Below are positions 2 through 39,257 of a DNA stretch of 64,000 nt, one piece after another. Within the stretch, counting starts at the first letter, position 1, and each line of letters opens with the position of its first letter. The notes below the pieces were generated by a model, which saw nothing but the letters and a program-made list of their open reading frames with translations, had not been told where the DNA came from and did not search any database. Source of the stretch: Solirubrobacteraceae bacterium (GTDB lineage: Bacteria; Actinomycetota; Thermoleophilia; Solirubrobacterales; Solirubrobacteraceae); NCBI GenBank assembly GCA_049509055.1, contig JBELAG010000001.1, positions 8,895-72,894 of the forward strand, read 5' to 3'. The position numbers were made by a program, and so were the translations under genes.

Positions 2-1183
2 GCCGAGAGCTCGCTGTCGTCGCCCCGGGTGGCGCTCGTCCACGATTTCCTGCTCGACGTGCGCGGCGCCGAGCGGGTGTTCATCGAGCTGTGCCGGATG
101 TGGCCCGAGGCCCCGATCTACACGGCCGTCTACGACGAGGAGGGGACCGAGGGCCGGTTCGCCGACCGCACCGTCCACAGCTCGTTCCTGCAGGGGCTGC
201 GGCCCTCTGCCCGCACCTTCCGGGTGCTGCTGCCCCTGTATCCGGCGGCGATCGAGTCGTTTGACCTGTCGGGCTACGACCTCGTCGTCTCCAGCTCCTC
301 GGCGTGGGCCCACGCGATCCTGTGCGACGAGCACACCGTCCACGTCAGCTACTGCCACAACCCGTTTCGCTACGCGTGGAACGACCGTGACCAGACGCTC
401 GCCCGGGCGCGCAACCCGGTCGCGCGGGCCTTCCTGCGCGGCGCCTTCCGCCGCTGGCGCCAGTGGGACTGGATCGCGGCCCAGCGGACCGATCGCTACA
501 TCGCCAACTCCGACACGACGCGGGCCAGGATCAAGGCCTACTTCGGGCGGGAGGCGTCGGTCGTGTATCCGCCCGTCGAGACCGCGCGATTCAGCGCCGG
601 GAGGGTGGGCGACCACTACGCGATCGTCTCCGAGCTGATGCCGCACAAGCAGATCGATCTGGCGATCGAGGCGTTCAACGCGCTGGCGCTGCCGCTGATC
701 GTGATCGGCGACGGTCCCGACGCCCGCCGGCTGCGGCGGGACGCGGGCCCCATGATCCACTTCGCCGGCCGCCTCACCGACGCCGCCGTGGCCGAGGTGC
801 TGCAGGGCGCGCGGGCCCTGATCGTGACCGCGGTCGAGGAGTTCGGGATCGCGGCGGTCGAGAGCCAGGCCGCGGGCCGGCCGGTGATCGCCCGTCGCGG
901 CGGCGGGGCCCTGGAGACGATCGTCGACGGGGTCACCGGCTGCTGGTGGTCGGGTGGCGCCGAGGATCTCGCTCGCGCGGTGCTGGAGTTCGATGACGCG
1001 TCGGTCAATCCGCTGGCCTGCGTCCGCAACGCTCATCGCTTCGACACCGCCCAGTTCCGGGACGGGATGTGGGCCGAGGTGGAGGCGGCCACCGAGTCCG
1101 AGATCCGTCCTGCGGCCGGCGACCGGCAGCCGCTGGCGACGACCCGCCTGGTGAGGCGCGCGGCGCGGGACGCCCACCGCTAG
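2..1183 (+). CDS. Glycosyltransferase family 4 (GT-B), probably 5'-partial
   Basis: ALVHD..GAERV N-terminus and EEFGIAAVESQAAGRPVIA GT4 motif. The frame is open from the window start; the ORF track starts at GTG 29. Confidence 0.9.
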   Translation, partial: AESSLSSPRVALVHDFLLDVRGAERVFIELCRMWPEAPIYTAVYDEEGTEGRFADRTVHSSFLQGLRPSARTFRVLLPLYPAAIESFDLSGYDLVVSSSSAWAHAILCDEHTVHVSYCHNPFRYAWNDRDQTLARARNPVARAFLRGAFRRWRQWDWIAAQRTDRYIANSDTTRARIKAYFGREASVVYPPVETARFSAGRVGDHYAIVSELMPHKQIDLAIEAFNALALPLIVIGDGPDARRLRRDAGPMIHFAGRLTDAAVAEVLQGARALIVTAVEEFGIAAVESQAAGRPVIARRGGGALETIVDGVTGCWWSGGAEDLARAVLEFDDASVNPLACVRNAHRFDTAQFRDGMWAEVEAATESEIRPAAGDRQPLATTRLVRRAARDAHR

Positions 1184-1185
1184 CG

Positions 1186-2658
1186 GTGCGCCCCGGCGTC
1201 GCCAACGCCGCGCGCCTCGTTCTGCTCGCCGGGCCGACCGCCCTGGCGTTCTTCGCCGGCGGCTACTTCGACGGTCCGCGGATCTGGGCGGGCCTGGTGG
1301 CCTGGGCGCTCGTGGCCGTCGCAGCGGTCGTCTGCCCGCGGCCGGTGCCCGACTCGCCCGGCGCGATCATCGCGCTCGTCGGGCTCGCGCTGCTGGCGGC
1401 ATGGACGCTGGCGTCGATCGCCTGGGCGCCGGTGGCCGGCAGCGCCTATCACGACGGCCAGCGGATCGTGCTCTACGCCGGGGTGCTGCTGGCGGCCGCC
1501 GCGCTGCTGCGCACCCGCGGCGCGCAGCGCGCGGTGGAGCCCGTGCTGGCGGCGGGCACGCTGGTCGTGATCGGTTACGGCCTGTCGGAGCGCGTCCTGC
1601 CCGGCGTGCTGCACTTCGCCCACTCGGTCAGCGCCCAGGGACGCCTCGAGCAGCCGCTCACCTACTGGAACGCGATGGGCGAGCTGGCGGCGATGGGATT
1701 CGTCCTCGTCGTCCGCCTGGCGGGCGATGACGAGCGCCCCCGCTGGCTGCGTTGCGCGGCCGCCGGCGGCGCCGCGCCGCTCGGCCTCGGCTTGTACCTG
1801 AGCTTCTCCCGCGGCGCGCTGTTCGCGTGTGCGGCCGGCCTGCTGACGCTGATCGTGGTCGCCCCCCAGCGACGCCAGGGCTGGGCGCTGCTGCGCTGCG
1901 TGGCCGCCGGAACCGTCTCGGCGGCGGTGGCGGCGCCGTTTGCCGGCGTGGTGTCGATGTCGGGCTCGGCGACCACGCGGGCGCTGCAGGGCGCGGTGAC
2001 CCTGGTGGCGCTCGTCGTGATCACCGGCGCGAGCGCCAACGCGCAGTGGTGGCTCGCCGAGCGGGAGTTCGCCGGGGACCTGCGGCTGCCCCGCCGCGCG
2101 CCGGCGCTCGCCACGCTGCTCACCTGCGCCGGGCTGGCGCTGGCGATCGTCGTCGGCGCCAAGGAGGGGACCTCGCAGCCGCTGGGTTCCGGGTCCAACC
2201 GGCTGGTCTCGCTGCAGAGCAACCGCTACGCCTACTGGCGCGTCGCCCTGCGGGCGTTCGCCCGGTCGCCGGTGAACGGCGTCGGCGCGGGCGGCTGGGC
2301 CGTCTACTGGCTGAAGTGGCGCCCGTTCGCCGAGGGCGCTCAGGACGCCCATTCGCTGGAACTGCAGACGCTGGCCGAGCTGGGCATCGTCGGTCTGGCG
2401 ATGCTCGCGGCGTTCCTGGCCGGGATCGGCCTGGCCGCGCGGATCGCCCATCGGGTCGCGCCCGCCGCGTCGGCCGGCGCGATCGCCACGTGCGTGGCAT
2501 GGCTTGCCCATTCGCCGCTGGACTGGGACTGGGAGATGCCGGCGGTCACGCTCGTCGCGCTGATCCTCGCGGGGCTGCTGCTGGCGCTTCCCGACCCCCT
2601 CCGCGAACGGCCGGCGCGGACCGTCGCGCGCCGCGCGCCGAACGGCCGAAATGGATAA
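1186..2658 (+). CDS. O-antigen ligase-like (Wzy_C) membrane protein
   Basis: Multi-TM protein with LSFSRG, a late RYAYWRVAL...GVGAGG loop and AHSLELQTLAELGIVG (H-N/S motif). GTG 1186 follows the upstream stop. Confidence 0.8.
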   Translation: MRPGVANAARLVLLAGPTALAFFAGGYFDGPRIWAGLVAWALVAVAAVVCPRPVPDSPGAIIALVGLALLAAWTLASIAWAPVAGSAYHDGQRIVLYAGVLLAAAALLRTRGAQRAVEPVLAAGTLVVIGYGLSERVLPGVLHFAHSVSAQGRLEQPLTYWNAMGELAAMGFVLVVRLAGDDERPRWLRCAAAGGAAPLGLGLYLSFSRGALFACAAGLLTLIVVAPQRRQGWALLRCVAAGTVSAAVAAPFAGVVSMSGSATTRALQGAVTLVALVVITGASANAQWWLAEREFAGDLRLPRRAPALATLLTCAGLALAIVVGAKEGTSQPLGSGSNRLVSLQSNRYAYWRVALRAFARSPVNGVGAGGWAVYWLKWRPFAEGAQDAHSLELQTLAELGIVGLAMLAAFLAGIGLAARIAHRVAPAASAGAIATCVAWLAHSPLDWDWEMPAVTLVALILAGLLLALPDPLRERPARTVARRAPNGRNG

Positions 2659-3077: not shown

Positions 3078-6000
3078 TTGACCGTTCCGGCGCAGCCGGT
3101 GGCGACCGCGCAGGCCAGGCCGGCGAACCGCGGCAGCGCCCGCGCCATGCGGGCGCGGGCGCTCGTCGGCGACCGCGCGATCACGCTGTGGTTTGTCGCG
3201 TTCTCGTTCGCGCTGGCCTTCTGGCAACGCCCGGGCTGGGCGACGGCCGACACGAAGATCGATCTGCACGTCGATCCCGGGCAGTTCCTCTCCCAGGTGG
3301 CATCGGCGTGGACGTCGACCGGCGATCTCGGCGAGGTCCACAGCGCGCAGTACAGCGGCTATCTCTGGCCGATGGGGCCGTTCTTCGCCGCCGTCCACGC
3401 GATCGGGATCTCCGACTGGGTCGCCGAGCGGCTCTGGCTCGGGCTGCTGTTCGCGCTCTCGGCGTGGGGGATGCTCAAGCTCCTCGACGTCCTCGTCGGC
3501 CGGCCCCGGGGCGCGGTGCACGTCGTGGCGGGCGCCTTCTACCTGCTCAACCCCTATGTCGTCGTGTTCACCGCCCGCACGAGCATCACGCTGCTGGGCT
3601 ACGCCGCGCTGCCGTGGCTGTTGCTGATCACCTTCCACGGGATCAAGGCGACGCGCGCCCGGCGCTCCTGGCGAAGCTGGTGGTGGGCGGCGGGCTTCGC
3701 CCTGATCCTCACCTCCACCGGCGGCGGCGTCAACGCGGCCGTGGTCGGCTGGATGCTGTTCGGGCCGCTGGTGCTGGCGATCTACGAGCCGGCGATCGGC
3801 AACGCCCGCTGGCGCGACAGCGCCGCGTTCCTGGTGCGCGTGGGCATCCTCGGGCTGCTCGCCTCGGCCTGGTGGATCGTGCCGGTGCTCGTGCACGTGC
3901 GCTTCGGGATCGACTTCCTCCAGTTCACCGAGCAGCCGGCGACGATCTGGGGCACCAACAGCCTGACCGAGTCGCTGCGGCTGATGGGCTACTGGACCTC
4001 CTACATCGGGGTCGGCTTCGGCGTCAGCCGCCCGTTCTTCAGCGACGGCGCGACGCTGCTGTTCAACCCGCTGGTGGTCGGCGCGTCGCTGCTGATCCCC
4101 GCGCTCGCGGTCGCCGGCTTCGTGCGCGCCCGGCGCCTGAGCTACGCCCCGTTCCTGCTGGCGCTCGTGGTCGTCGGGGTGGTGATCGAGACCGCCGGAT
4201 TCCCCGACGGCACGCCGGTGCGCGGGACGATGGTGTGGATCTACGAGCACATCTTCGTGCTCAGCTTCATGCGCACCACCAACAAGGCGGCGCCGCTGGT
4301 CGCGGTCGGGGTGGCGGGCCTGCTCGGGCTCGGCGTCCGCGCCGCGCTGGCCTGGCTGCGCCAGCGGCCGACGGCGCGACTGCGCCGCGGCGGGCCGGTG
4401 GCGGTCGCGGTCGCCGTGACCGCGCTGATCGTGCTCGCCGCGCTCCCGCTGGTCCGCGGCGGCGCGATCGACACCCAGCTCTCGTTCAAGCGCATCCCCG
4501 CCGGCTGGACGCAGGCCGCGACGGGCCTTGACCGCTCGCTGCCCGCCAACACGCGGGCGATCGTGCTCCCCGGCCAGATCTTCGCCTACTACAACTGGGG
4601 CGGCTCGCTGGATGCGATCCTGCCGCGGCTCACCACCCGGCCGGTCGCGGTGCGCTACGAGACGCCGTACTCCGATCTGCACGCCGACGACCTGCTGATC
4701 ACCGTCGACGATCTCGTCCAGCAGGACCGCCTCGTCCCCGGGGAGCTCACGCCCCTGCTGCGGCTGATGGGGGTCGGCGCGGTGATCACCGGGGCCGACG
4801 ACGACATCTCGCGCAGCGGCGCCCTCGATCCCAACGCCGCGGCCGGCGTGCTGGCGGGGCAGGGACTGCGCACGCCGAACGCCGCCTACGGCGTCGTCAA
4901 GCCGCATCCGGCGGCCGCCGGTGACATCGGCCCGACGGTCGAGCTGCCGGAGGTTCGCCGCTACGACGTCGCCGGCGCGCGCGGGATCGTCCACCTGGAC
5001 CCGGCCGCCGCGCCGACCGTGGTCGACGGCAGCGCCCAGTCGCTGGCCGAGATGGCGGCGTTCGGCACGCTGCCCGCTGCCGCGCCGATCTTCTACGCCG
5101 GCGATCAGTCCGAGGCGCAGCTGCGGTCCCTCGCCGCCCAGGGGGCGAACCTCGTCGTCGGCGACTCCAACCGCCGGCAGGAGTTCCTGCCCGAGTCCAC
5201 GCAGCAGAACCTCGGCGTCACCCTGCCGTCCGATCAGTCGATCCCGGTCAACGCCGCCGACCTCGACCCCTTCGCGTCGGCCGCAGGCGCCGCCCAGACG
5301 GTCGCCGCGCTGCGGGGCGCCCGCTACCTGGACGCTCCCAGCGAGCCTGGCGAGCTGCAGTTCCCCGAGGCCGCGCCGATCGCCGCGTTCGACGGCAACC
5401 TCCAGACGGCGTGGGCGGCCGACCGCAACCTGCCGGTGTTCGATCGCTGGATCCAGATCGGCTTCGACGCCCCCCGGGCGGTGCCCTACGTGCGGGTGTA
5501 CCCGCTCGACGACAGCCACGGCGCCGTGACCGAGGTCGACGTCAACGGGATCGACCACGCCGTCGGCCCCGGCTGGACGACGATCCCCCTGCACCTGCGG
5601 TCGGTCAGCGCGCTGCGGCTGACGATCACCGGGCTGCGCCAGCCCCGCACCGGCGAGGCGAGCGCCGGCGGCTTCCGCGAGGTCCGGATTCCCGGCTTCC
5701 ACGTCACCGAGTACCTGCGGGCGCCGGTCGTGATCGGCCGCGACCTGGCGGGCGTCGATCTCGCCCACGACAGCCTCAGCTACCTGCTGGCGCGCACGAC
5801 CGGCGACGAGCCGTTTGATCGCAACGTCGGCGGCGTCGACACGCTGCTCGACGATCCGTCGGACCGGGGCGACGCCGAGGCGCAGATCCAGCGGATCGTC
5901 TTCGCCCCCGTCACGCGCGCCTATGCGGCCTCGGCGTGGGTCTATCCCGCCGTCGGCACGCCCGACTCCACGCTCGACCGCCTCGCCGGCTACCGCGGAC

Positions 6001-7382
6001 CCGACGTGTTCGACTCCTCCGGCCGCTTTCAGGATCAGCCCGCCTACCGCGCGTCCAGCGCCTTCGCCGCCGGCTCGCGGGTGGGCTGGATCGGCGTCTG
6101 GCGACCCGGTGCGCCCGCGCCCTGGATCTCGTGGAGCACTCCGCGGGCGCTGACCGTCTCGCGGCTGACGATCGCGCCGTCGGCGATGGTCGTCCGCCGT
6201 GCCACGCGAGTGGCGCTCAGCTTCAGCGGCGGCGCGACGGGACCGCTCGTGGTCGGGCCCGGCGGCACGGTGACGCTGCCCCGTCCGGTCACCGCCCGCG
6301 CCTTCCGGCTGACGATCCTGTCGGCCGCCTTCCCGGCCGGTGCCACCGCGCAGCAGCGCCAGGCCCTGGCGGTGGGGATCGGCGCCCTGTCGGTGCCGGG
6401 GATTCCCGCGGTCTCGATCCCCATCGCCGGCGCGCTGCACGCCCCGTGCGGCACCGTCGCGATCGCCGTCGACGGGCGCTCGGTCGCGATGGCGCCGGTC
6501 GGCACCGTCGCCCAGCTTGACGCCGGGCGGCCGCTGCCCGCCCGCGCCTGTGCCCCGGTCTCGATGGCCGCGGGCGTCGCGCAGATCAGCTCGCTGCCCG
6601 GTCCGTTCAGCGTCGATCTGCTACGGCTGGCCTCGGCGGCGCCGTCGCCCCTGGCGCCCGCCACGGCTGCGACCGCCGCGGCCGGGCGGCTGCTCGACCC
6701 CGGCCGGATCGGCAACAGCACGGTCAGTGGCGTGCGCGTCACGCTGAGCGCTCCGACCTGGCTGGTGCTCGGCGAGAGCTACGACGCCGGCTGGCAGGCG
6801 AGCTGCAACGGCCGCTCGCTCGGGGCCCCGCGCGTGATCGACGGCTACGCCAACGGCTGGCTCGCGCCGGCCGGCTGCACAAGCGTGACGTTCACTTTCG
6901 GGCCGCAGGCGGGCATCAACCGCAGCTATGCGCTCTCGGCGGTGGCGTGCGCCGTGATGCTCCTGCTGCTGGTGATCGGCGCCTGGCGCGCCCCGGCGGC
7001 CGCCACCGTCCCGCGCGACGCGCTCCGGCGCCTGCCACCGTGGACCGGCGGCCCGGTATCGCTGCCCCGGGCGGCGCTGTTGGCGCTGATCGCGTCGATC
7101 CCACTCGGTTACCTGTTCGCCATCCGCGCGGGGCTCGGGCTGTTCGCGCTGCTGACCTTCGTGCTGTGGCGCGGCTACCGCCCCCGGACGCTCGCGCTCG
7201 CCGCGGCGGCGATGCTCGGGATCGCCGTGCCGGTCGCCTACCTGATCGGCTCCCCGCACAACCAGGGCGGCTACGGCTTTGCCTACAGCACCCAGACGAT
7301 CGGCGCGCACTGGATCGGCGTGGCGGCGATCGTCCTGCTCAGCCTCGTCCTGTGGCGGCTCATTCGCGCCCGCGCTCGATGA
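3078..7382 (+). CDS. aftD: AftD-like / DUF3367 GT-C glycosyltransferase with F5/8-type-C-like extracellular domains (paralogue 1)
   Basis: 1434 aa. QRPGWATADTKIDL, YLWPMGPFF, LLGYAALPW, ESLRLMGYW, AAFDGNLQTAW, GYANGW. Size and motifs match the AftD family. Confidence 0.85.
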   Translation: MTVPAQPVATAQARPANRGSARAMRARALVGDRAITLWFVAFSFALAFWQRPGWATADTKIDLHVDPGQFLSQVASAWTSTGDLGEVHSAQYSGYLWPMGPFFAAVHAIGISDWVAERLWLGLLFALSAWGMLKLLDVLVGRPRGAVHVVAGAFYLLNPYVVVFTARTSITLLGYAALPWLLLITFHGIKATRARRSWRSWWWAAGFALILTSTGGGVNAAVVGWMLFGPLVLAIYEPAIGNARWRDSAAFLVRVGILGLLASAWWIVPVLVHVRFGIDFLQFTEQPATIWGTNSLTESLRLMGYWTSYIGVGFGVSRPFFSDGATLLFNPLVVGASLLIPALAVAGFVRARRLSYAPFLLALVVVGVVIETAGFPDGTPVRGTMVWIYEHIFVLSFMRTTNKAAPLVAVGVAGLLGLGVRAALAWLRQRPTARLRRGGPVAVAVAVTALIVLAALPLVRGGAIDTQLSFKRIPAGWTQAATGLDRSLPANTRAIVLPGQIFAYYNWGGSLDAILPRLTTRPVAVRYETPYSDLHADDLLITVDDLVQQDRLVPGELTPLLRLMGVGAVITGADDDISRSGALDPNAAAGVLAGQGLRTPNAAYGVVKPHPAAAGDIGPTVELPEVRRYDVAGARGIVHLDPAAAPTVVDGSAQSLAEMAAFGTLPAAAPIFYAGDQSEAQLRSLAAQGANLVVGDSNRRQEFLPESTQQNLGVTLPSDQSIPVNAADLDPFASAAGAAQTVAALRGARYLDAPSEPGELQFPEAAPIAAFDGNLQTAWAADRNLPVFDRWIQIGFDAPRAVPYVRVYPLDDSHGAVTEVDVNGIDHAVGPGWTTIPLHLRSVSALRLTITGLRQPRTGEASAGGFREVRIPGFHVTEYLRAPVVIGRDLAGVDLAHDSLSYLLARTTGDEPFDRNVGGVDTLLDDPSDRGDAEAQIQRIVFAPVTRAYAASAWVYPAVGTPDSTLDRLAGYRGPDVFDSSGRFQDQPAYRASSAFAAGSRVGWIGVWRPGAPAPWISWSTPRALTVSRLTIAPSAMVVRRATRVALSFSGGATGPLVVGPGGTVTLPRPVTARAFRLTILSAAFPAGATAQQRQALAVGIGALSVPGIPAVSIPIAGALHAPCGTVAIAVDGRSVAMAPVGTVAQLDAGRPLPARACAPVSMAAGVAQISSLPGPFSVDLLRLASAAPSPLAPATAATAAAGRLLDPGRIGNSTVSGVRVTLSAPTWLVLGESYDAGWQASCNGRSLGAPRVIDGYANGWLAPAGCTSVTFTFGPQAGINRSYALSAVACAVMLLLLVIGAWRAPAAATVPRDALRRLPPWTGGPVSLPRAALLALIASIPLGYLFAIRAGLGLFALLTFVLWRGYRPRTLALAAAAMLGIAVPVAYLIGSPHNQGGYGFAYSTQTIGAHWIGVAAIVLLSLVLWRLIRARAR

Positions 7383-8103
7383 ACGCGAAGACGACCCCGC
7401 GCGCGCTGTAGAGCAGGAAGTCGTAGGGCGCGGTCCACACGAGCGCGGGCTCGGCCTCGTGCCAGCGCGTCTCGCCCCCGGCGCGGCGCAGGGCGGCGAT
7501 CGCGGTCGTCGCGATCGTGCCGTCGCGCAGGGCGGCGTCGAACGCCGGGTTGTAGCCGACCGGCACGGTGATCACCAGCAGCCCGCCGGGAGCCAGCCGC
7601 TCGCGCAGCGCGGCCACCGCGGCGGCCGCCTTGCCGGGGTCGCGCGGCTGCTCGTCGAAGCCGACATGCTCGAGCGTGGAGATCGCCACGATCAGGTCGA
7701 ACGGCCCGAGGTCGGCGACGTCGGTCGCGTCGCGGTTGAGGACCCCTGCCGAACGCTCGTACTTGTCGATCACGAGGTGTGACTGCGGCCGGTAGTGGCC
7801 GAGCACGTGGCCCACCTCGAGGATCCGCGCCCCCGAGTGGCGGTCGACGATCGACTGCACGACCGGCACCTCGACGGCGCGCTCGGTCAGCCACGTGCGC
7901 TTGTAGGGGTGATAGAGGTAACGATGGGTCTCGCCCCGGAAGGCGAAGCGACGGTGGGCGCCCGCCAGCGACCAGGGCGTCCCGGCGATCCACCGGCATC
8001 CCCAGCGCGCCAGGTCGCCGATCACCGGCCGCGGCCCCCGGGCCCGGATCGCGCGGCGGGTGCGGGGGCCCAGCGCCTGCGGTTGGTAGCCGTCGGAGAG
8101 CAT
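7360..8103 (-). CDS. Class I SAM-dependent methyltransferase-like protein
   Basis: ILEVGHVLG motif I variant, FDLIVAISTLEHVG, LAPGGLLVITVP. ATG at 8103 overlaps the upstream stop. Confidence 0.75.
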   Translation of the reverse strand: MLSDGYQPQALGPRTRRAIRARGPRPVIGDLARWGCRWIAGTPWSLAGAHRRFAFRGETHRYLYHPYKRTWLTERAVEVPVVQSIVDRHSGARILEVGHVLGHYRPQSHLVIDKYERSAGVLNRDATDVADLGPFDLIVAISTLEHVGFDEQPRDPGKAAAAVAALRERLAPGGLLVITVPVGYNPAFDAALRDGTIATTAIAALRRAGGETRWHEAEPALVWTAPYDFLLYSARGVVFAFIERGRE

Positions 8104-10649: not shown

Positions 10650-10697
10650 GGCGTGATCGTATCTGCCCTCCCGCGGCGTCAGGTAGCCTCCGGCCGC

Positions 10698-22867: not shown

Positions 22868-22869
22868 CG

Positions 22870-25946: not shown

Positions 25947-25953
25947 GCCGCTG

Positions 25954-28150: not shown

Positions 28151-28803
28151 TGGATCTCGTAGCCCAGCGGCGCGAGGCGGCGCGCTATGTCGGCCTCCTC
28201 GCTGAAGATGAAGTAGCGCTCGTCAAAGCCGCCGATCTGCTCGAACACCGCGCGGTCGACGAGCATCGCACAGGCCGACACCGCTCCGACCGCCTTCGGC
28301 TGATCGCCGGTGGATACCACCGCTCCCCGCCGGCCGAGCGTCAGCGCCCAGAGCAACTGCACCCGCAGGCTCATCAGCCGCCACGCCGAGCCTTGCCGGC
28401 GACCGTCGGGGCCGACGATGCGTGGCCCCACGATCGCACAGCGCGGGTGCGCGTCCAGATAGCCCACGAGCGCGTCAAGCGTCCCCGGCGGCGTCTCGGT
28501 GTCCTCGTTGAGGATGTAGACGTATCGGCTCTCGACGGCCGCGACCACGACGTTGTGGTTGGCGCCGAATCCGGCGCGGTGGGGCTGGGCGATCACGTGC
28601 ACCTGCGGGAGTCTCCGGCGCACGGCGTCCACCGATTCATCGACCGAGGCGTTGTCGAGCACGTGCAGCTCGACCGAGCAGCGCCGCCCAGGGTCATCGA
28701 GCAGCGTCTCCAGGCAACGCATGAGCAGCGCGCAGTTCGACGTGTTGACGATCGATACGGCGACATCGATCGCGGTGTCCGAGTTGATCCGCGTCGTGTT
28801 CAC
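28126..28803 (-). pseudogene. Glycosyltransferase family 2 (rhamnosyltransferase-like), 3'-truncated
   Basis: VLDNASVD, GFGANHN, ILNEDT, GGFDERYFIFSEEAD. Ends at HYLPSVVT, collided with the epimerase. Confidence 0.85.
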
Positions 28804-28849
28804 TCTCGAGCCGTGACCGTTGTCATGAACCGGGCGAGGCCCCGCGCGG

Positions 28850-31372: not shown

Positions 31373-32406
31373 CGCCGGGCGGGGGCCGGCGCGAGCCCGG
31401 GGGCCGGCGCGAGCCCGGGGGCCGCGGCCGCCCCGGGGGCCGCGGCGGGCGCTGCCGGGTCGCGGATCACGCAGTCGACGAGATACAGCGGGCGCCCCAG
31501 CACCTCGGCGTGGACCCGCGCGAGGTAGCGGCCGAGGATTCCGACGGTCGTCAGCTGGACGCCCGACAGGAACAGCACGGCGGCCAGCACCCACACCCAC
31601 ACGCTGGGGTGCACGGCGCCGATCAGGCTGAGCAGCAGGATCACCACCGCGCCGAGCGCGCTCAGCTGCGCGGTGAGCATGCCGAACAGCGTGGCGAGCT
31701 GGAGCGGGACGTCGGAGAAGGCGGTCAGCGCCTCGAGCGCCAGGCCGAGCAGCTGCGGATAGGTGGCGCCGCGCCCGGCGTGGCGCCCCGCCCGCCGGTA
31801 CTCGACCGGCACCTGCACGAACCCCACCCACGCCACCAGCCCGCGCAGGAAGCGCCGGCGCTCGGGCATCTGCCGGATCGCCTCGACGACCCGCCGCGAC
31901 ATCACCCGGAAGTCGCCGGCCTGGCCCTGGTAGGGGACCCGCGCGACGCGGGCCATCAGGCCGTAGAAAGCGGTGGCGAGAAAGCGCTTGACCGCGCTCT
32001 CGTCGCGGCCGATCCGCCGCGCGTAGGCGACGTCGGCGCCGCCGCGGACGGCGGCGAGCATCTCGGCCAGCAGCTCGGGCGGGTCCTGGAGGTCGGCGTG
32101 CATCAGCGCGACGTAGCGGCCGCGGGCATGGTCGAGCCCCGCGGACATCGCGATCTCCATCCCGAAGTTGCGCGACAGCCTGACGAGCGCGACCTCGACC
32201 GCGCCGGCGCCGACCCAGCCCCGGACGAGCTGCACCGAACGGTCGCTGGACCCGTCGTCGACGTAGACGATCTCGGTCGGCCCGTCGAGGGCGCCGAGCG
32301 TCTCGGTCAGCCGGCGATGCAGCTCGGGCAGGCCCGCCTCCTCGTTGAGGACCGGGACGACGACCGAGAGCAGCGGCTCCTGTGGGGCGGCTGGCGGGCT
32401 CATCAC
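31369..32406 (-). CDS. GT2, GtrB/CsbB/ArnC-like undecaprenyl-phosphate glycosyltransferase
   Basis: VVPVLNEE, YVDDGSSD, LSRNFG, MHADLQDPP, GDFRVMSRR, RFLRGLVAWVGF, two C-terminal TM helices. Confidence 0.9.
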   Translation of the reverse strand: MMSPPAAPQEPLLSVVVPVLNEEAGLPELHRRLTETLGALDGPTEIVYVDDGSSDRSVQLVRGWVGAGAVEVALVRLSRNFGMEIAMSAGLDHARGRYVALMHADLQDPPELLAEMLAAVRGGADVAYARRIGRDESAVKRFLATAFYGLMARVARVPYQGQAGDFRVMSRRVVEAIRQMPERRRFLRGLVAWVGFVQVPVEYRRAGRHAGRGATYPQLLGLALEALTAFSDVPLQLATLFGMLTAQLSALGAVVILLLSLIGAVHPSVWVWVLAAVLFLSGVQLTTVGILGRYLARVHAEVLGRPLYLVDCVIRDPAAPAAAPGAAAAPGLAPAPGLAPAPARR

Positions 32407-32454: not shown

Positions 32455-33219
32455 TTGGAGCAGCAGGCTTACCGCGAGCAGTTCGAGCTCGAGGACACCC
32501 ACTGGTGGTTCGCCGGGCGGCGCGCGGTGATTCGGGCGCTGCTGCAGCGCACCGGCGCGATCGACGGCCTGCGGCTGCTCGATGCCGGCTGCGGAACCGG
32601 CCACAACCTGCGGGAGTTCGGCACGCCCGGCACCGCGCGCGGGGTCGACTCCTCGCCGCAGGCGATCGAGTTCTGCCGGCTGCGGGGCGTGGAGGGGGTC
32701 AGCGAGGGCCGGATCGAGGAGCTGCCCTTCCCCGACGGCTCGTTCGATCTGATCCTCGCCACCGACGTGCTCGAGCACCTGTCCGACGATCGCGCGGCGA
32801 TGCGCGAGCTGCGCCGCGTCGCCGCCCCCGGCGCCCGGCTGCTGGCGACCGTGCCCGCCTATCGCTGGCTGTGGAGTCAGCACGACACCGCCCACCATCA
32901 CTTCCGCCGCTACACGCTGGCGCGGCTGCGTGGCCGGCTGCAGGCGGCCGGCTGGCGCCCGCTGGCCTGGAGCTACTTCAACACCGTCCTGCTGCCCCCG
33001 ATCGCCGCCGTCCGCGTGCTCGGCCGCCGCCACACCGATGCCGACGGCGAGCGCCCCGACCTGCGGCTGACGCCGGCGGCGCTCAACCGCCTGCTCGAGG
33101 CGCCGATGCGCCTCGAGGCCGGGCTGATCGGCCACGGCGCCCGGCTTCCCGCCGGGGTTTCGATCGGGATCGTCTGCGCCGCCGGCGAGCCCGCCGGCGA
33201 GCCCGCCGGCGTTCGGTGA
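32455..33219 (+). CDS. Class I SAM-dependent methyltransferase
   Basis: EDTHWWFAGRR, LLDAGCGTG, TDVLEHL, TVPAYRWLWSQHD, HFRRY. TTG start. Confidence 0.88.
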   Translation: MEQQAYREQFELEDTHWWFAGRRAVIRALLQRTGAIDGLRLLDAGCGTGHNLREFGTPGTARGVDSSPQAIEFCRLRGVEGVSEGRIEELPFPDGSFDLILATDVLEHLSDDRAAMRELRRVAAPGARLLATVPAYRWLWSQHDTAHHHFRRYTLARLRGRLQAAGWRPLAWSYFNTVLLPPIAAVRVLGRRHTDADGERPDLRLTPAALNRLLEAPMRLEAGLIGHGARLPAGVSIGIVCAAGEPAGEPAGVR

Positions 33220-33992
33220 TCGGGCGGGCGGCCCGGTCGCTGGCGCTGCGCGCGGCCGATGCCGCCGACGGCGCGCTCGGCCGCAGCGACGCCCTGACGC
33301 CGCCCCGGCGCCTGTCGGACTACGTCGGCGACTCGGATTTCCGGGCCACCGGCGCCGAGTTCCTCGGCTATTTCGAGGAGCTCGCCGGGCTCGAGTCCTC
33401 GGATCGGGTACTCGAGATCGGCTGCGGGATCGGACGCATGGCGCGGGTGCTCGTGCCGGTGCTGCGCCCGCCGGGCGGCTATGACGGCTTCGACGTGGTG
33501 CGGACGGGGATCGACTGGTGCCGTTCGCGCTATGTCCGAACCCCGGCGCCGTTTCGCTTCCACCACGCCGACCTGCGCAACGCGGCCTACAACCCGGCGG
33601 GCTCGCTGGCGCCCGACGAGTACCGCTTCCCGTTTCACGACGGCGCCTTCGACCTCGTGATCGCCACCTCGGTCTTCACCCACCTGCTCGCCGGGACGGC
33701 CGATCACTACCTGGCCGAGGCGGCGCGCGTGCTGGCGCCGGGCGGCCGGCTGTTCACGACGTGGCTGCTGATCCCCGCCGGCGCGCCGACGCCACCGGCG
33801 TTCGCGCGCCGGCGTGAGGTCGCCGTCCGCGATCCCGCGGTGCCCGAGGCGGCGGTCGCCTACGACGAGCCGTGGCTGCGCGAGCGCCTGCCGGCCCACG
33901 GTCTCACGATCGATGCGATCACCCCCGGGACATGGTCGGGGCGCGAGGGCCGCACCCCCCAAGACGTCGTGATCGCGCTTCGAGCGCGGTAG
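33216..33992 (+). CDS. Class I SAM-dependent methyltransferase
   Basis: VLEIGCGIGR, YDGFDV, SVFTHL, LAPGGRLFTT. GTGA coupling. Confidence 0.88.
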   Translation: MIGRAARSLALRAADAADGALGRSDALTPPRRLSDYVGDSDFRATGAEFLGYFEELAGLESSDRVLEIGCGIGRMARVLVPVLRPPGGYDGFDVVRTGIDWCRSRYVRTPAPFRFHHADLRNAAYNPAGSLAPDEYRFPFHDGAFDLVIATSVFTHLLAGTADHYLAEAARVLAPGGRLFTTWLLIPAGAPTPPAFARRREVAVRDPAVPEAAVAYDEPWLRERLPAHGLTIDAITPGTWSGREGRTPQDVVIALRAR

Positions 33993-34040: not shown

Positions 34041-35507
34041 TCACGTCCCCCGCCCCCGCAACGCTGCGAGCAGTTCGGACACGAGTGTCCGCTCGCGGCG
34101 AAACACCAACGCTCCGTACACGACGCTGAACAGCAGCAGTTCGCCGATCGCCTGCGCCGGCGTGCGCCGGCCGCCCCACAGCGCGAGCCGCAACGCCACC
34201 ACCGCCGCGCAGGCGAGCGCGAGCGGCAGCAGGACCGGACCGACGAGCCGGCGGTAGCGGGCGTTGGGCAGCAGGCGCCGGACGTAGACGCTGCGGACGG
34301 CGAAGGCCACCAGCGCCGCGCCGATCCGGCCCAGGACGAAGCCGTCGAAGCCGTCGAGCAGCAGGCCGGCCGGCGCGAGGGCGACGAACGCGATCGCGCC
34401 GGCGACCGCCTCGACCGCCGGCGGGCGGGTGTCGCCGTGCGCGCGAAAGAACGAGAACCAGTTGAAGCCCAGCTGGGTGATCGCGCCGACCACCGCGAGG
34501 CCCTGGAGCAGCACGACCGCGGGGTGCCAGCTCGGACCGAGGATGAAGCCGACGAGGTCCGGGGCGAACAGGACGAGCCCGGCGGCGTAGGGCGCCACCC
34601 ACAGCAGCGTCGCGCGATTGGACTTCAGGTAGAGCTCCTCGAGCGCCGGCCGCTGGCCCTGGATCGCGCAGATCGCCGGGTAGATCGTCGCCGTGACGAT
34701 CTGGTCGGCGCGGTCGATGTAGCGCGTCAGGGTGACCGCGAGCGTGATGAAGCCGGCCGCCGCCAGCCCGTCGTGGAGCTTGATCACCAGCACCGGCCCC
34801 TGGGCGATCACGATCGCCCCCAGGACCGTGACGAGGATCGGCGCCGAGAAGCGCAGGTAGCGGGCGGCGATCGCGCGGTCATAGCGCAGCGCCAGCGGGT
34901 AGGGGGCGACGGCGAGCGCCGCCGCGACCGCGACCGCGTAGCCCGCGACCTGGCCGACGATCAGGCTCCACACCCCCAGCGAGGTGGCGGCCGCCAGCGG
35001 CACCGTGACGACAAAGCCGACCAGCGGCTGGATCGCCTGCAGCGAGCGCTGGCGGCGGAAGTCCATCCGGCGAAAGAACACCCACAGCGGCGCCTGCAGC
35101 GCGAACGCGAGCGGGAGATACGCGAGGCTCGCCATCAGCGCCAGCAGCCGGTGGTCGGAGTAGATCGCGGCGACCGCCGGCGACAGCGCGAGGATGATCG
35201 CGCACATCGCCACCGACAGCCCGAGCTCGAGCGTGAACGCGTACTGGAACTCGGCCCGCTGGTCGGGCTGGTCCTGCTGAACGAACGCCTCGTCGATGCC
35301 GACCCGCTTGAGCGCGATCAGCGAGATCACGGTCGTCGAGACGACGCCGTAGAGGCCGATCTGGCGCGGGCCCAGCAGGCGGGTCACGACCAGCCCCTGG
35401 ACGAGCACGAGCGCATCGATCGCCACCAGGAAGCCGGCGGTGACGATCGTGCCCCGCAGCGTGCGCCGGCGCAGCTCGCCGCGAGGGAAGGGCAGCCGCT
35501 CGCTCAT
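34041..35507 (-). CDS. wzx: Oligosaccharide flippase (Wzx/MOP family)
   Basis: RRTLRG start, TRLLGP..IGLYG, RRMDFRR, SLGVWSLIVGQ, ~12-14 TM pattern. Confidence 0.85.
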   Translation of the reverse strand: MSERLPFPRGELRRRTLRGTIVTAGFLVAIDALVLVQGLVVTRLLGPRQIGLYGVVSTTVISLIALKRVGIDEAFVQQDQPDQRAEFQYAFTLELGLSVAMCAIILALSPAVAAIYSDHRLLALMASLAYLPLAFALQAPLWVFFRRMDFRRQRSLQAIQPLVGFVVTVPLAAATSLGVWSLIVGQVAGYAVAVAAALAVAPYPLALRYDRAIAARYLRFSAPILVTVLGAIVIAQGPVLVIKLHDGLAAAGFITLAVTLTRYIDRADQIVTATIYPAICAIQGQRPALEELYLKSNRATLLWVAPYAAGLVLFAPDLVGFILGPSWHPAVVLLQGLAVVGAITQLGFNWFSFFRAHGDTRPPAVEAVAGAIAFVALAPAGLLLDGFDGFVLGRIGAALVAFAVRSVYVRRLLPNARYRRLVGPVLLPLALACAAVVALRLALWGGRRTPAQAIGELLLFSVVYGALVFRRERTLVSELLAALRGRGT

Positions 35508-37039
35508 CGCGTCGCCGCGCGGCGGCCGCCCACCAGCACCTGGTAATAGCCGTAGCGCGCCACCGGGGGATAGTGGGCGGCGATCCAGCGGCCGAGCAGG
35601 TTCACCCCGCTCGACCGACCCGACCCGTTGGGCTCGACCTGGTCGGCGCGCGGATCGAGCCAACGGATCACCACGCGGGTGCCGGAGCGCTGCAGCGAGG
35701 CGATGATCTCGCGCTGGACGGGCGCCGTCGTCACCACCCCCGGCTGCATCACGTCATAGCGCGTCGGGTTGGGATGGCCGGTGATGACGTACAGCTCGGG
35801 GTCGCCGGCCTGCACGAGGTCAAAGCGCGGGTTGGCGACGAAGATCGGGGCGCCCGGGCGGGTGATCCGCGAGAGCTCGGCCAGCAGCAGCGCCAGCGAT
35901 CGGGCATCGGCAGGATCGGTCTGGACGCCATCCCCCGCCGGGCCGGGGACGGCGGCCAGCGCGGGCGGGTGCAGCAGCTGCCCGGCCCGGCGCTCGACCC
36001 CGTGCACCGCGATCAGCGCCAGCGCCAGCGCGACCGCGCCGCGCAGCACGGCGGGCCGGGTGACCGGCGCTGCCCGGGCGAGCATCACCGGCAGCACCGC
36101 GGCCAGCGGCACGAGGTGAAACTCGTCGGTGCGCCCCAGCAGGTAGGCGAGCCCGACGACCGCCAGCGGGACCGGCGAGAAGTCCTCGAGCGCGATCCGG
36201 GCGCGGTCGCCCGCCACGATCGCGACCGCCCACACCGCCAGCCCCGCCACCAGGATCAGCGGGATGTAGAACTCGATCAGCTTGCTCGGCTTCAGCGGCC
36301 CGTGATAGGCGAGCGGGAAGGGGAGCCGCTGCAGGCTCTGGATCGAGTAGAAGCCGATCGTGTCGTGCCACATCGCGCCGGGCGCGACGACGGCGAACGG
36401 GCCCAGCGTGACCGCCGCGACCGCGGCCGCCGCCAACCCGGCCCGCCGGCGCGTGCCCCACGGCGCCTCGAGCGCCACCCCGACGATCGCCGCCAACCCG
36501 AGCTCCAGACGGAACACGCACGCCAGCCCCGCCAACGCGCCCGCCAACCCCGGACGGCGCCGTGCGGCCAGCAGCGCGGCGAAGGCGATCAACAGCGCCG
36601 GCGGGTTGGGGCCCGGAAGGCTCGGATACGCCAGCGCGCCCGCCACCGCCAGCCACGCGCCGAGGGCGTAGGGCTCGGGCGCGCGGCGCCGCGCGAGCCG
36701 GTAGGCGAGCAGCGCGACGGCCGCGTCGGTGGCGACGAGCACCAACCGCCAGGCCAGCAGCGACGGGCCGAAGACGAGCTGCAGCCCGGCCAGGATGACC
36801 TCCTGCCCGGGCTGGTAGTTGGTCCAGAAGTCGCGGTAGGGCCACTGGCCGCCGGCGATCCGCGCGCCCGCCTGGAGCATCAGCCCCTCATCGTGTGGGG
36901 CATAGCCCTGGAGGATCGTGAACCCGGCCAGCAGCCCGGCGAGGGCAAGGAGCGCGCACTGGAGCCCGGGCCCGGGCGGATCGGGGGCGATGCCCCGGGA
37001 TGCGCCGCGCGGGCTCCGCGTCTGGCTGAGCACCGACAT
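35504..37039 (-). CDS. GT-C / ArnT-like membrane protein
   Basis: PHDEGLMLQAGARIAGGQWPYRDFWTNYQPG loop, FRLELG, RTDEFH and a C-terminal soluble domain. Confidence 0.7.
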   Translation of the reverse strand: MSVLSQTRSPRGASRGIAPDPPGPGLQCALLALAGLLAGFTILQGYAPHDEGLMLQAGARIAGGQWPYRDFWTNYQPGQEVILAGLQLVFGPSLLAWRLVLVATDAAVALLAYRLARRRAPEPYALGAWLAVAGALAYPSLPGPNPPALLIAFAALLAARRRPGLAGALAGLACVFRLELGLAAIVGVALEAPWGTRRRAGLAAAAVAAVTLGPFAVVAPGAMWHDTIGFYSIQSLQRLPFPLAYHGPLKPSKLIEFYIPLILVAGLAVWAVAIVAGDRARIALEDFSPVPLAVVGLAYLLGRTDEFHLVPLAAVLPVMLARAAPVTRPAVLRGAVALALALIAVHGVERRAGQLLHPPALAAVPGPAGDGVQTDPADARSLALLLAELSRITRPGAPIFVANPRFDLVQAGDPELYVITGHPNPTRYDVMQPGVVTTAPVQREIIASLQRSGTRVVIRWLDPRADQVEPNGSGRSSGVNLLGRWIAAHYPPVARYGYYQVLVGGRRAATR

Positions 37040-37161: not shown

Positions 37162-38283
37162 ATGAGGGTGCTGGTCGACGCGCGGTCACTGGCCGGCTCG
37201 CGGGGGGTGACGCGCTACACGCGCTGCCTGCTGGAGGCGATGGCCGCGGACTTCCCCGGCGACCGCTGGGTGGTGTTCGCCCCCGGCCGCGACGAGCTGC
37301 CAGGGATCGACGGGCTGCGGGCACTGAGAAACGTCTCGGTCCGCCGCCACCCGCTGCCGGGCCGGGTGCTGTTCGGCGCCGCCGCGGTGGCCGGCCGGCC
37401 GCGGCTCGAGCGGCTGGCCGGCGCCCCAGGGCCCGACGTCGTGTGGGCCCCCGCAGTGGCCCCGATCGCCGTGTCGCCGGGGATCCCGCTGGTGCTGACC
37501 GTGCACGATCTCAGCTTCGAGCTGCGTCCGCAGGACTTCACCGCCTACGAGCGCCTGTGGCATCGCCTGGCCCGCCCGCGGGCCCTGGCCGCCCGCGCGG
37601 CCGCGGTGATCGTGCCGGCGCCGTCGACGCGCGAGCAGCTCGTCTCCCGCTGGGGCCTGGACCGCGCCCGGATCGTCGTCGTGCCCGAAGGGGCGTTGCG
37701 CTCGGCGGCGGACCGCGGAGCGCCCGTCGAGTCCGGCGCGATGCTCGCGCGCCGCGGGCTGACGCCCGGCGGATACCTGCTCGCCGTCGGCGCGCTGGAG
37801 CCGCGCAAGGCGCCGCAGCTGCTGGCGCGGGCCTACGCCACGGCGCGCCGGCGCGGGCTGCGGGCCGAGCTCGTGTTCGCCGGGGAGGGCCGCCTCGCAT
37901 CGCGGCTGGTGGCGCCGGGCGTGCGGCTGCTGGGGCGGGTGACCGACGCCGAGCTCGGCGCGCTGTACGCGGGGGCGATCGCGCTGGCGGCGCCCTCGCT
38001 GCTGGAGGGTTACGGGCTGACCGTGCGCGAGGCGCTGGCCCACGGCACCCCGGCGGTGATCAGCGATCTGCCGGAGTTCGGCGACGAGCTGTCGGGCGCG
38101 GTCCTGCGCGTGCCGGCGGGCGACGAGGACGCGCTCAGCCTGGCGCTGGCGCGGATCGCGGGCGACCCGGCAGTGCGCGCCGCGCTGGCCGGCGCCGCGC
38201 GCCCGGCGGTGGCGGGGCTGAGCTGGCGGGCCGCCGGCGAGCGGACCCGGGCGGTGCTGGAGCGGGCGAGCGCCGGGCGATGA
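37162..38283 (+). CDS. Glycosyltransferase family 4 (mannosyltransferase-like)
   Basis: MRVLVDARSL, LTVHDL, VGALEPRK, PSLLEGYGLTVREALAHGTP. Confidence 0.9.
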   Translation: MRVLVDARSLAGSRGVTRYTRCLLEAMAADFPGDRWVVFAPGRDELPGIDGLRALRNVSVRRHPLPGRVLFGAAAVAGRPRLERLAGAPGPDVVWAPAVAPIAVSPGIPLVLTVHDLSFELRPQDFTAYERLWHRLARPRALAARAAAVIVPAPSTREQLVSRWGLDRARIVVVPEGALRSAADRGAPVESGAMLARRGLTPGGYLLAVGALEPRKAPQLLARAYATARRRGLRAELVFAGEGRLASRLVAPGVRLLGRVTDAELGALYAGAIALAAPSLLEGYGLTVREALAHGTPAVISDLPEFGDELSGAVLRVPAGDEDALSLALARIAGDPAVRAALAGAARPAVAGLSWRAAGERTRAVLERASAGR

Positions 38284-39257
38284 GCGCGCGGACGTCGGTG
38301 GTCATCCCCAACTGGAACGGCCGGCGCTGGCTGGAGCCGTGCCTGGCGGCCCTGGCCGCCCAGGATCTGGCGGCGGCCGAGGTGATCGTCGTCGACAACG
38401 GCTCCACCGACGGCTCGCGGGAGTACCTGCGCGACCGCCATCCCGAGGTCCGGGTGCTCGCGCTGGCGACCAACACCGGCTTCGCCCACGCCGCCAACGC
38501 GGGCATGGCCGCCGCGCAGGCCGAGTTCGTGGCGCTGATCAACACCGACGTCGAGCTCGCCCCCGACTGGCTGCGGCGAACCGCGCAGGCGCTGCACGAC
38601 CACCCGCGGGCGGCGTCGGTGGCCTGCAAGATGCTGTCGCTCGAGCATCCCGAGCTCGTCTACGACGCGGGTGACATCCTTCGCCGCGACGGAGTCTGCG
38701 AGCAGCGCGGACGGTCCGGGGCCGACGACGGCCGCTACGACGAGGCCGGCGAGATCTTCGGCGCGTGCGCCGGGGCGGCGCTCTACCGGCGGGCGGTGGT
38801 GCGGGCGATCGGCGGGTTCGACGAGCGCTACTTCGCCTACCTGGAGGACGTCGATCTGGCGTTGCGGCTGCGGCTGGCGGGATGGGGATGCCGGTATGAG
38901 CCGGTGGTGGCGTGGCACGCCGGCGAGGGCTCGTCGCATCAGCTCGCGGGCGGGCATCAGCGGCTGGTGGAGCGCAACACGCTGGTCCTGGTCGCCAAGG
39001 CCTTCCCGCCGGCCTGGCTGCCGATGGTGCTCTACCGCCAGGCCGGTTGGCTGGCGCACGCCGCCCGCGAGCGGCGGCTGCGCGCGCACCTGCGCGGCGC
39101 CCTGGGCGCGCTTCCGCTGGCGCGCCACGCCCTCGCGCAGCGCCGCCGGCTGCGCGCGACGGCGGTGATCGGCGTCGCCGAAGCGGTTCCCGCGCGCGCG
39201 TTTCACGGATCCCAGGCCGGGGGACACCCGGATAAGAAAGCTGGGGCCCGCCGCTAA
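38280..39257 (+). CDS. Glycosyltransferase family 2 (GT2-like, rhamnosyl/galactofuranosyl type)
   Basis: VVIPNWNG, VVDNGSTDG, NTGFAHAAN, LINTD, CAGAALYRR, FDERYFAYLEDVD. Confidence 0.9.
   Translation: MSARTSVVIPNWNGRRWLEPCLAALAAQDLAAAEVIVVDNGSTDGSREYLRDRHPEVRVLALATNTGFAHAANAGMAAAQAEFVALINTDVELAPDWLRRTAQALHDHPRAASVACKMLSLEHPELVYDAGDILRRDGVCEQRGRSGADDGRYDEAGEIFGACAGAALYRRAVVRAIGGFDERYFAYLEDVDLALRLRLAGWGCRYEPVVAWHAGEGSSHQLAGGHQRLVERNTLVLVAKAFPPAWLPMVLYRQAGWLAHAARERRLRAHLRGALGALPLARHALAQRRRLRATAVIGVAEAVPARAFHGSQAGGHPDKKAGARR

Follow-up and report, generated by a model that had tools for sequence, protein, structure and literature searches.

The 64,000-nucleotide stretch of DNA analysed here (hereafter the window), from an uncultured soil member of the Solirubrobacteraceae in the class Thermoleophilia, carries a cluster of about 21 tightly packed genes of the glycan-assembly type. 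We judge it reasonably probable that this is one conserved Solirubrobacterales cluster for an envelope heteroglycan built in two compartments, in which soluble glycosyltransferases (GTs) and methyltransferases would make a lipid-linked oligosaccharide in the cytoplasm, and membrane-embedded GT-C enzymes would extend the exported glycan outside. The evidence, all computed here, comprises protein families, predicted folds, gene coupling, the synteny of related genomes and the finding of no arabinose-donor genes in the assembly. Thermoleophilia are abundant in soils and, to our knowledge, their cell envelope is almost unstudied.

The window (C1:8895-72894) is part of a 95.5-kb contig, C1, of a 6.64-Mb metagenome-assembled genome (MAG) that comprises 631 contigs and is 91% complete; the names of homologs place it in the Solirubrobacteraceae, class Thermoleophilia. 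Because most long open reading frames (ORFs) are spurious at 74% GC, genes were called by means of codon-position GC together with a codon-usage model. Synteny was compared across 79 loci taken around homologs of P0001, the GT-C-fold protein encoded at 29666-31372 (P0002 denotes a second GT-C-fold protein, encoded at 35504-37039). All of these loci come from MAGs, with no cultured isolate among the 79.

A preliminary description of this DNA had placed the glycan genes in two blocks, and had named an artificial join of unlinked contigs as grounds for dismissing them as a unit. The synteny of relatives leads to a different picture, in which the two blocks are one conserved locus, contiguous in at least 16 related MAGs, and the 17.9-28.85 kb region between them, including the GT2 gene at 28126 that had been counted with the glycan genes, is an insert. 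In G005, a genome of the same genus, a 44.1-kb contig carries an unbroken series of BipA, hydrolase, GT2, P0002, Wzx, methyltransferase, GtrB, P0001, GT2, AftD2, GT2, Methyltransf_24 methyltransferase (MT24), GT4, YfhO, methyltransferase, AftD1 and orf134. At least 15 further Solirubrobacterales contigs among the 79 loci, many of them hundreds of kb long, share one contiguous order (BipA, GT2, GT4, P0002, Wzx, two methyltransferases, GtrB, P0001, GT2, AftD2, GT2, MT24, GT4, YfhO). MAGs labelled Thermoleophilaceae carry the same gene set in shuffled order, including Wzy_C and the first GT4.

The region 17884-28849 is recognised as an insert because relatives are contiguous across the site and lack its genes. 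It encodes PadR, an S26 signal peptidase, GNAT, an NB-ARC/TPR protein of the STAND (NLR-like) type and an FtsX permease with two ABC ATPases, as well as a truncated epimerase (219 aa) at its edge and the short GT2 b02 (28126). PadR, S26, GNAT, STAND, FtsX and b02 occur in 0 of the 79 related loci, where AftD2 directly abuts GT2 b03, and the insert occupies precisely this convergent gap. The GC content at third codon positions (GC3) is 0.88 in its genes versus 0.945 in the locus, and neither flanking repeats nor an integrase were found at its edges. The FtsX-ABC-ABC trio also occurs, in an unrelated context, in G341, another genome of the genus. The longest ORFs of the two ABC ATPases (25930-27391) overlap by about 270 nt, and according to the codon model the second gene begins at 26753.

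That the insert, together with a frameshift in AftD2 described below, reflects mis-assembly of the MAG, or that the cluster has lost its function in this organism, is very improbable. Fragmentation into 631 contigs, the frameshift, the truncated epimerase at the insert edge and the lower GC3 of the insert could all be read in this way. However, neither the window nor contig C1 contains a single N base, and all locus genes apart from AftD2, about 20 in number, are intact and give a strong coding signal. A chimeric join is unlikely because gene order and orientation across the insert match those of relatives; two chance joins placed exactly in the convergent AftD2-b03 gap would not restore that order.

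The extracytoplasmic half of the proposed pathway rests on five GT-C-like proteins, all of which had been noticed beforehand. Three are recognised by Pfam, namely two AftD-like proteins and a YfhO-family protein. P0001 and P0002 have no Pfam or NCBIfam match, and searches of the Protein Data Bank (PDB) by sequence, with either single sequences or profiles, returned nothing for them; only structure comparison succeeded. Confident AlphaFold2 (AF2) models of P0001 (pLDDT 82.7, pTM 0.85) and P0002 (pLDDT 75.4, pTM 0.74), built on alignments of their homologs, were compared with the PDB by Foldseek, and the top matches were GT-C enzymes only, with a probability of 1.00 and TM-scores of 0.40-0.58. 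For P0001 these were ArnT (7e-6), AftA (TM-score 0.55-0.58), STT3, DPY19 and PglB; for P0002 they were DPY19 (1e-4), ArnT (2e-4), AftA, STT3 and ALG9. Conserved acidic residues lie just past the first transmembrane (TM) helix, as placed by the model helices: in P0001, D59 is invariant and D56 is present in at least 90% of sequences, and in P0002, D50 and E51 are present in at least 90% of sequences; P0002 also has a conserved H-D-E motif after TM1. Therefore, with these structural matches and residues, all five GT-C calls hold.

Both proteins belong to large families: in soil metagenomes each has homologs numbering in the hundreds, with identities of 59-81%. Some relatives of P0001 are tagged DUF6311/PF19830, and some relatives of P0002 are tagged PF09594 (GT87) or PF13231 (PMT_2). 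Orthologs of P0001 are patchily distributed, being found in 12 of 41 relatives. More distant P0001-family (DUF6311-like) homologs, at 32-37% identity, are present in Gaiellaceae and Binataceae (Binatota) MAGs (L059-L104), often in several copies per genome, and some Solirubrobacterales MAGs (L043, L046) carry three or four tandem P0001 paralogs instead of one.

The YfhO-family protein matches PF09586 with 32 bits versus a cut-off of 28.5, and only C-terminal model positions 775-835 (60) are aligned. Nearly all of the 120 homologs listed carry PF09586 and are named 'YfhO family protein' at NCBI. The protein has eleven hydrophobic segments, the last of which is a lone C-terminal one, and the gene on record begins with a GTG at 10649. 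A longer gene of 1159 aa (8103-11582) was considered and rejected, since the codon model and the record agree on 848 aa and a GT4 gene occupies 10698-11909 on the opposite strand.

The two AftD-like proteins are the sole copies of PF11847 in the genome, scoring 302 bits (AftD1) and 301 bits (AftD2) against a cut-off of 26. AftD1, at 1434 aa, has the complete architecture of the family, with an N-terminal GT-C domain, periplasmic F5/8C carbohydrate-binding modules and a C-terminal TM bundle, and its match to Mycobacterium abscessus AftD (6W98/6WBX, 1.5e-41) spans the GT-C domain and the C-terminal part. AftD2 shows the same architecture only when two ORFs, 13340-15997 and 15781-17883, are read jointly: the second encodes F5/8C, CBM_AftD and four C-terminal TM segments, and the coding signal passes from one frame to the other between about 15757 and 15775. 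The two ORFs thus make up one AftD-like gene whose frame changes midway. In G005 the ortholog is read in one frame throughout, over at least 1524 aa, and a separate C-terminal product would start within a periplasmic domain, without an export signal. In this genome AftD2 is either broken or mis-assembled. The frame change falls in the linker that connects the GT-C domain to the first of the carbohydrate-binding modules. A candidate second frameshift at the 5′ end (13333-13599) was rejected as antisense translation of the conserved opposite-strand GT2.

The residues K39, D41, E251, K361 and D474 are essential in M. abscessus AftD (10.1101/2019.12.22.885152). AftD1 retains equivalents of K39, D41, E251, W272, K361 and D474, and its clade has Asp at the D41 position in nine of nine motif matches. 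In contrast, the AftD2 clade has DTKIN instead of DTKID in all 11 motif matches at AftD2 orthologs. Beyond Corynebacteriales, homologs of AftD have been noted in 11 further orders of the class Actinobacteria, where they have not been assigned a function. The carbohydrate-binding modules of mycobacterial AftD bind glycan acceptors. Across the class studied here, AftD-like genes were found in 7 of 201 genomes sampled, all within this order apart from one weak sub-threshold match. One genome of a sister family has an AftD that looks canonical and of the mycobacterial type (G337:C5:542797-544743); it scores 705 bits on PF11847, and the genome also carries DPPR synthase (DPPRS).

Donors for these enzymes could be supplied by neighbouring GT2 proteins, three of which had been put forward as polyprenol-phosphate-sugar synthases. 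The assignment is firm for the protein encoded at 31369-32406, a full-length homolog of GtrB/ArnC-type lipid-phosphate-sugar synthases by sequence comparison: it matches Synechocystis GtrB (5EKP) at 2e-67 over residues 13-311 of 345, ArnC at 4e-38 (residues 13-316) and PgfS at 3e-62, and it has one C-terminal TM segment by hydropathy. The proteins encoded at 12667-13563 and 28850-29662 are probable polyprenyl-phosphate sugar synthases, and their best PDB match is the Pyrococcus DPM synthase (DPMS) 5MLZ, at 9e-31 and 1.5e-14, respectively; the latter also matches ArnC at 6e-12. Their top NCBIfam models are AglJ, PpgS and Dol-P-hexose transferase for 12667 and PpgS for 28850, at 48-59 bits versus cut-offs of 325-375. 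Gene order ties these synthases to the GT-C genes: b03 directly follows the P0001 homolog in 23 of the 79 related loci and GtrB directly precedes it in 21, and in 14 of 26 loci no more than 600 bp separate an AftD-like gene from a DPMS-like GT2. Overlaps of 4 nt join GtrB with P0001, P0002 with Wzx, GT4 with MT24, and the Methyltransf_11 gene with the Methyltransf_25 gene.

Mycobacterial AftD-type enzymes draw attention to decaprenyl-phospho-arabinose (DPA) as a donor. The DPPR synthase model has no match in this 91%-complete genome, and tblastn searches with DPPRS, DprE1 and DprE2 of relatives retrieved no orthologs from the assembly; its only ALO/FAD oxidase (on contig C83) was rejected as DprE1, as it sits beside GH31 and GH3 genes. 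The wider distribution was assessed in one sample of 151 Solirubrobacterales genomes, each at least 90% complete, in which AftD-like genes are present in 27, DPPRS in 61 and both in 5, counts that are descriptive only, related genomes not being independent samples. DPPRS is thus present in 5 of the 27 AftD-bearing genomes versus 56 of the 124 without AftD-like genes. Because so few AftD-bearing genomes have DPPRS, the AftD-like clade appears to be uncoupled from the arabinose-donor pathway; with DPPRS, DprE1 and DprE2 also not found here, a hexose-type lipid donor from the adjacent GT2s is the more likely. The idea that the DPA pathway is missing from the whole lineage was rejected, as relatives carry DPPRS-DprE1-DprE2. 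These operons occur mostly in members of the order without AftD-like genes, a hint that other GT-C enzymes of Thermoleophilia may make glycans that contain pentofuranoses.

It is quite unlikely, but conceivable, that the AftD-like proteins are true arabinofuranosyl- or pentofuranosyltransferases using decaprenyl-phospho-pentose, the donor genes of which would lie in the unassembled 9% of the genome. Absence of the DPA genes here could be an assembly gap, because three close AftD-bearing relatives have DPPRS-DprE1-DprE2 operons: G005 and G056 of the same genus (at L118 on G005:C1 and L120 on G056:C4) and G190 of the same family (L121 on G190:C13), with scores of 246-369 bits versus 207 for DPPRS, 259 and 305 versus 250 for DprE2, and 383-545 versus 500 for DprE1. 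DPPRS is moreover common in the order, as the 61 of 151 genomes attest. Against this stand the searches by hidden Markov model and tblastn that found none of the three orthologs in the assembly, the lack of DPPRS in 22 of 27 AftD-bearing genomes versus 68 of 124 AftD-less genomes, and the location of the AftD-like genes, which adjoin DPMS-like GT2s and not DPPRS.

A fuller version of the hexose-donor interpretation, which we put forward tentatively as a possibility that is short of an even chance, is that an AftD-family clade lacking DPA uses a polyprenyl-phospho-hexose made by the neighbouring DPMS-like GT2. Together with the two GT-C families represented by P0001 and P0002, it would build a methylated polymer resembling lipoarabinomannan (LAM) or arabinogalactan, maybe anchored on phosphatidylinositol, and the Asp-to-Asn paralog AftD2 would be mechanistically altered or non-catalytic. 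Phosphatidylinositol is a major lipid of cultured Solirubrobacterales.

The favoured two-compartment pathway would run as follows. A priming transferase, the gene of which lies outside the locus, would start a lipid-linked oligosaccharide at the cytoplasmic side of the membrane. There the three GT4 enzymes and two or three soluble GT2s would complete it, and the S-adenosylmethionine (SAM)-dependent methyltransferases would O-methylate it. The MOP flippase would carry the oligosaccharide across the membrane, and the Wzy_C protein would polymerise or ligate it. Outside, both AftD-like enzymes, the YfhO-family protein, P0001 and P0002 would extend and branch the glycan, with polyprenyl-phosphate sugars from the GtrB-type GT2 and its two neighbouring DPM-synthase-like counterparts as donors. 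The AftD-like enzymes, with their carbohydrate-binding modules, are predicted to act on the growing glycan, most likely with a lipid-linked hexose and not decaprenyl-phospho-arabinose. In the present genome this cluster is split by the 11-kb insert, with AftD2 frameshifted or mis-assembled.

Several observations weigh against this scheme. The locus encodes neither a priming transferase nor a chain-length regulator, and it lacks a GtrA-type flippase and an LCP ligase as well. Such genes lie on other contigs, which carry five of the Bac_transf type, three of the MraY/WecA family and three LCP genes. On its own, the locus does not suffice. One of the five GT-C enzymes, AftD2, is frameshifted here, and its clade has Asn in place of the Asp41 equivalent. 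The GT2 proteins at 12667 and 28850 have no TM segments and match at the level of the catalytic domain only. No locus gene matches an NCBIfam equivalog, all matches being far below the cut-offs, and therefore no sugar identity can be assigned. The operons of relatives and the 91% completeness make an arabinose or ribose donor conceivable in this organism, and the related genomes that display the synteny are not independent samples. With respect to the missing TM segments, the soluble catalytic domains of mycobacterial and corynebacterial Ppm1 likewise have none.

The same placement of priming genes would also suit a locus for decoration only, which we regard as rather unlikely. The MOP-family 'Wzx' protein would then flip polyprenyl-phosphate sugar donors, and the GT-C enzymes would modify a backbone made elsewhere, such as a wall teichoic-like or LCP-attached glycan. 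The Bac_transf, MraY/WecA-family and LCP genes of other contigs are in line with this. The window encodes no GtrA-type flippase, so donors would need another one; the P0002 and flippase genes overlap by 4 nt, and there is a precedent in the MATE-family flippase that flips donors in three-component systems (PMC11127046). However, three GT4, two or three soluble GT2 and four methyltransferase genes, together with Wzy_C, are conserved across families, which exceeds the needs of a decoration module.

Proteins, as opposed to a glycan, could also be the acceptor. S. mutans PgfS/PgfM1 and actinobacterial Ppm1/Pmt glycosylate proteins, and the Wzy_C protein of the locus could be a PglL-like oligosaccharyltransferase, with the PMT_2/GT87-like and YfhO-like GT-C enzymes glycosylating secreted or surface proteins. 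Among NCBIfam models, the Wzy_C protein indeed fits that of an 'O-glycosylation ligase' best (1.6e-7), the flippase shows a weak match to that of an 'O-glycosylation flippase', the YfhO-family protein weakly matches PgfM1, and the similarity of the GtrB-type GT2 to PgfS and the PMT_2 tag on some P0002 relatives point the same way. All of these matches are, however, far below curated cut-offs. The AftD-like enzymes bear F5/8C and CBM_AftD modules, whose mycobacterial counterparts bind glycan acceptors, and five GT-C enzymes with three donor synthases point to a complex glycan. Protein O-glycosylation is considered unlikely.

The two-compartment scheme has clear parallels in known systems. The closest is the synthesis of arabinogalactan, lipomannan and LAM in mycobacteria and corynebacteria (GT4 PimA/B, Ppm1, and GT-C PimE, MptA-C, Emb and AftA-D), which shares cytoplasmic GT4/GT2 steps, flipping and several GT-C enzymes fed by polyprenyl-phosphate sugars, and further the AftD-family architecture of GT-C domain, carbohydrate-binding modules and C-terminal TM bundle, with a Ppm1/DPMS-like GT2 beside the AftD-family enzymes here. 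The locus differs from that system in belonging to another class, Thermoleophilia, and in that neither this genome nor most AftD-bearing relatives yielded a DPA pathway. It has additional components (Wzx together with Wzy_C, YfhO, four methyltransferases and two GT-C families that lack a direct Pfam match), and its AftD-like proteins score about 300 bits on PF11847 versus the 705 of the canonical G337 copy.

The lipid-phosphate-sugar donor logic is that of three-component Gtr systems (GtrA flippase, GtrB Und-P-glucose synthase and serotype-specific GtrC) and of pentofuranose systems, the latter also resembling the locus in having a MOP/MATE-type flippase in the cluster (PMC11127046). As in Gtr systems, the GtrB homolog is translationally coupled to a GT-C, here P0001. 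Unlike them, the locus has no GtrA, is not phage-borne, and is not a single accessory module but a conserved cluster that unites three synthases with five GT-C enzymes. A YfhO-family GT-C paired with a GtrB/CsbB/PgfS-like GT2 is also known from CsbB/YfhO of B. subtilis, GtlA/GtlB of Listeria and PgfS/PgfM1 of S. mutans, acting on teichoic acids or adhesins; here, however, only the C-terminal part of the YfhO model is matched, the YfhO gene lies apart from the GtrB-type GT2, and no teichoic-acid genes are in view. Finally, the MOP flippase, the Wzy_C protein, the several GT4/GT2 enzymes and the patchy distribution among relatives recall Wzx/Wzy loci for O antigen and capsule. The full set of such loci is not assembled here, as no locus gene belongs to a phosphoglycosyl transferase (PGT) or PCP family; a priming PGT, a chain-length regulator and nucleotide-sugar genes are lacking, and the GT-C load is unusually heavy.

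The features of the locus are collected in Table 1. Pfam bears out what had been reported of three GT4s, two further GT2s (28126 and 38298), Wzy_C and Wzx, and three of the four proposed SAM methyltransferases are firm (11906, 32455, 33216), whereas the fourth (7360-8103) is weak. This fourth gene, a05, is kept in relatives at 58-62% identity. The first gene, a01, starts at C1:8923 or slightly before the window edge, and its orthologs in Thermoleophilaceae loci are 65-69% identical. The Wzy_C protein has nine hydrophobic segments by hydropathy and is present in 15 of the 79 related loci, and the ortholog of a03 in G005 is 57% identical and adjoins AftD1. The flippase b08 matches the NCBIfam 'MOP flippase family protein' NF007773 at 1.5e-28 and 100 bits, below its 273-bit cut-off.

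Table 1. Genes and other features of the glycan locus, in positions of the window.
Feature	Position	Strand	Evidence or remarks
GT4 glycosyltransferase a01, cytoplasmic	29-1183	+	Pfam Glycos_transf_1 and Glyco_transf_4
Wzy_C / O-antigen-ligase-like polytopic membrane protein a02	1186-2658	+	PF04932, 42.6 bits vs cut-off 31.7
Small 134-aa protein a03, N-terminal hydrophobic segment	2666-3070	+	No Pfam/NCBIfam match
AftD-like GT-C 1 (1434 aa)	3078-7382	+	PF11847 302 bits and F5/8C
Putative methyltransferase a05, weak assignment	7360-8103	-	Methyltransf_23 and Methyltransf_12 below Pfam cut-offs; PDB E 0.34
YfhO-family GT-C (848 aa)	8103-10649	-	PF09586 32 bits vs 28.5
GT4 glycosyltransferase a07	10698-11909	+	Glycos_transf_1, 98 bits; 4-nt overlap with a08
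SAM methyltransferase a08 (Methyltransf_24)	11906-12673	+	PF13578, 82 bits
DPM-synthase-like GT2 a09, candidate polyprenyl-phosphate sugar synthase	12667-13563	-	Divergent from AftD2; 5MLZ 9e-31
AftD-like GT-C 2	13631-17883	+	PF11847 301 bits; two ORFs, 13340/13631-15997 and 15781-17883
Insert	17884-28849	.	Pfam content; not part of glycan system
DPM-synthase/ArnC-like GT2 b03, candidate polyprenyl-phosphate sugar synthase	28850-29662	-	3 nt downstream of P0001
GT-C-fold membrane protein P0001 (568 aa)	29666-31372	-	AF2 and Foldseek; no direct Pfam match
GtrB/ArnC-type polyprenyl-phosphate glycosyltransferase b05	31369-32406	-	5EKP 2e-67; 4-nt overlap with P0001
SAM methyltransferase b06 (Methyltransf_11)	32455-33219	+	PF08241, 74.8 bits
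SAM methyltransferase b07 (Methyltransf_25/11)	33216-33992	+	PF13649, 50.6 bits
MOP-family (Wzx-type) flippase b08	34041-35507	-	Polysacc_synt_3, 132 bits; 4-nt overlap with P0002
GT-C-fold membrane protein P0002 (511 aa)	35504-37039	-	AF2 and Foldseek; no direct Pfam match
GT4 glycosyltransferase b10	37162-38283	+	Glyco_trans_1_4 and Glyco_transf_4
Soluble GT2 b11	38298-39257	+	PF00535, 91.6 bits
Alpha/beta hydrolase b12, syntenic locus end	39260-40030	+	Same position in G005, L029, L033, L034
BipA/TypA, housekeeping gene next to b12	40040-41878	-	

The locus extends upstream of the window to at least C1:5396, adding one GT2 and two GH39-like genes. The latter are paralogous and precede the GT2 within C1:5396-8817, and in Thermoleophilaceae MAGs the orthologs of the GH39-like gene at 5396-6715 and of the upstream GT2 sit inside the locus. 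Further towards the contig end, C1:2-1312 encodes a sixth GT-C (with a YkcB_C domain) that is cut by that end, and between it and the GH39-like genes lie genes for an A4 peptidase, a ferric-reductase-like protein and a PcsB-like protein.

The preliminary description had envisaged a Wzx-exported backbone that is decorated extracytoplasmically and methylated. The gene content fits such a two-compartment scheme, although the mechanism is one that we infer, with the priming and LCP genes outside the locus and one GT-C frameshifted. It had further stated that no polymer of this design has been described in the lineage. We found no paper that deals with the locus, with DUF6311 or with such envelope glycans in Thermoleophilia; the logic itself is known from arabinogalactan/LAM and Gtr systems, and to judge from the sequences the design is that logic in a new lineage and is not unprecedented.

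The cluster predicts that a class distant from mycobacteria assembles a complex glycan outside the membrane, comparable to those that characterise mycobacterial walls. It offers as leads two GT-C families without a direct Pfam match or a characterised member, an AftD clade apparently uncoupled from the arabinose donor, and a conserved paralog in which a residue that mycobacterial AftD requires is missing. If the reading presented here is true, the known donor range of AftD would widen, and the building of 'mycobacterial' wall glycans would be older or more widespread than has been thought.

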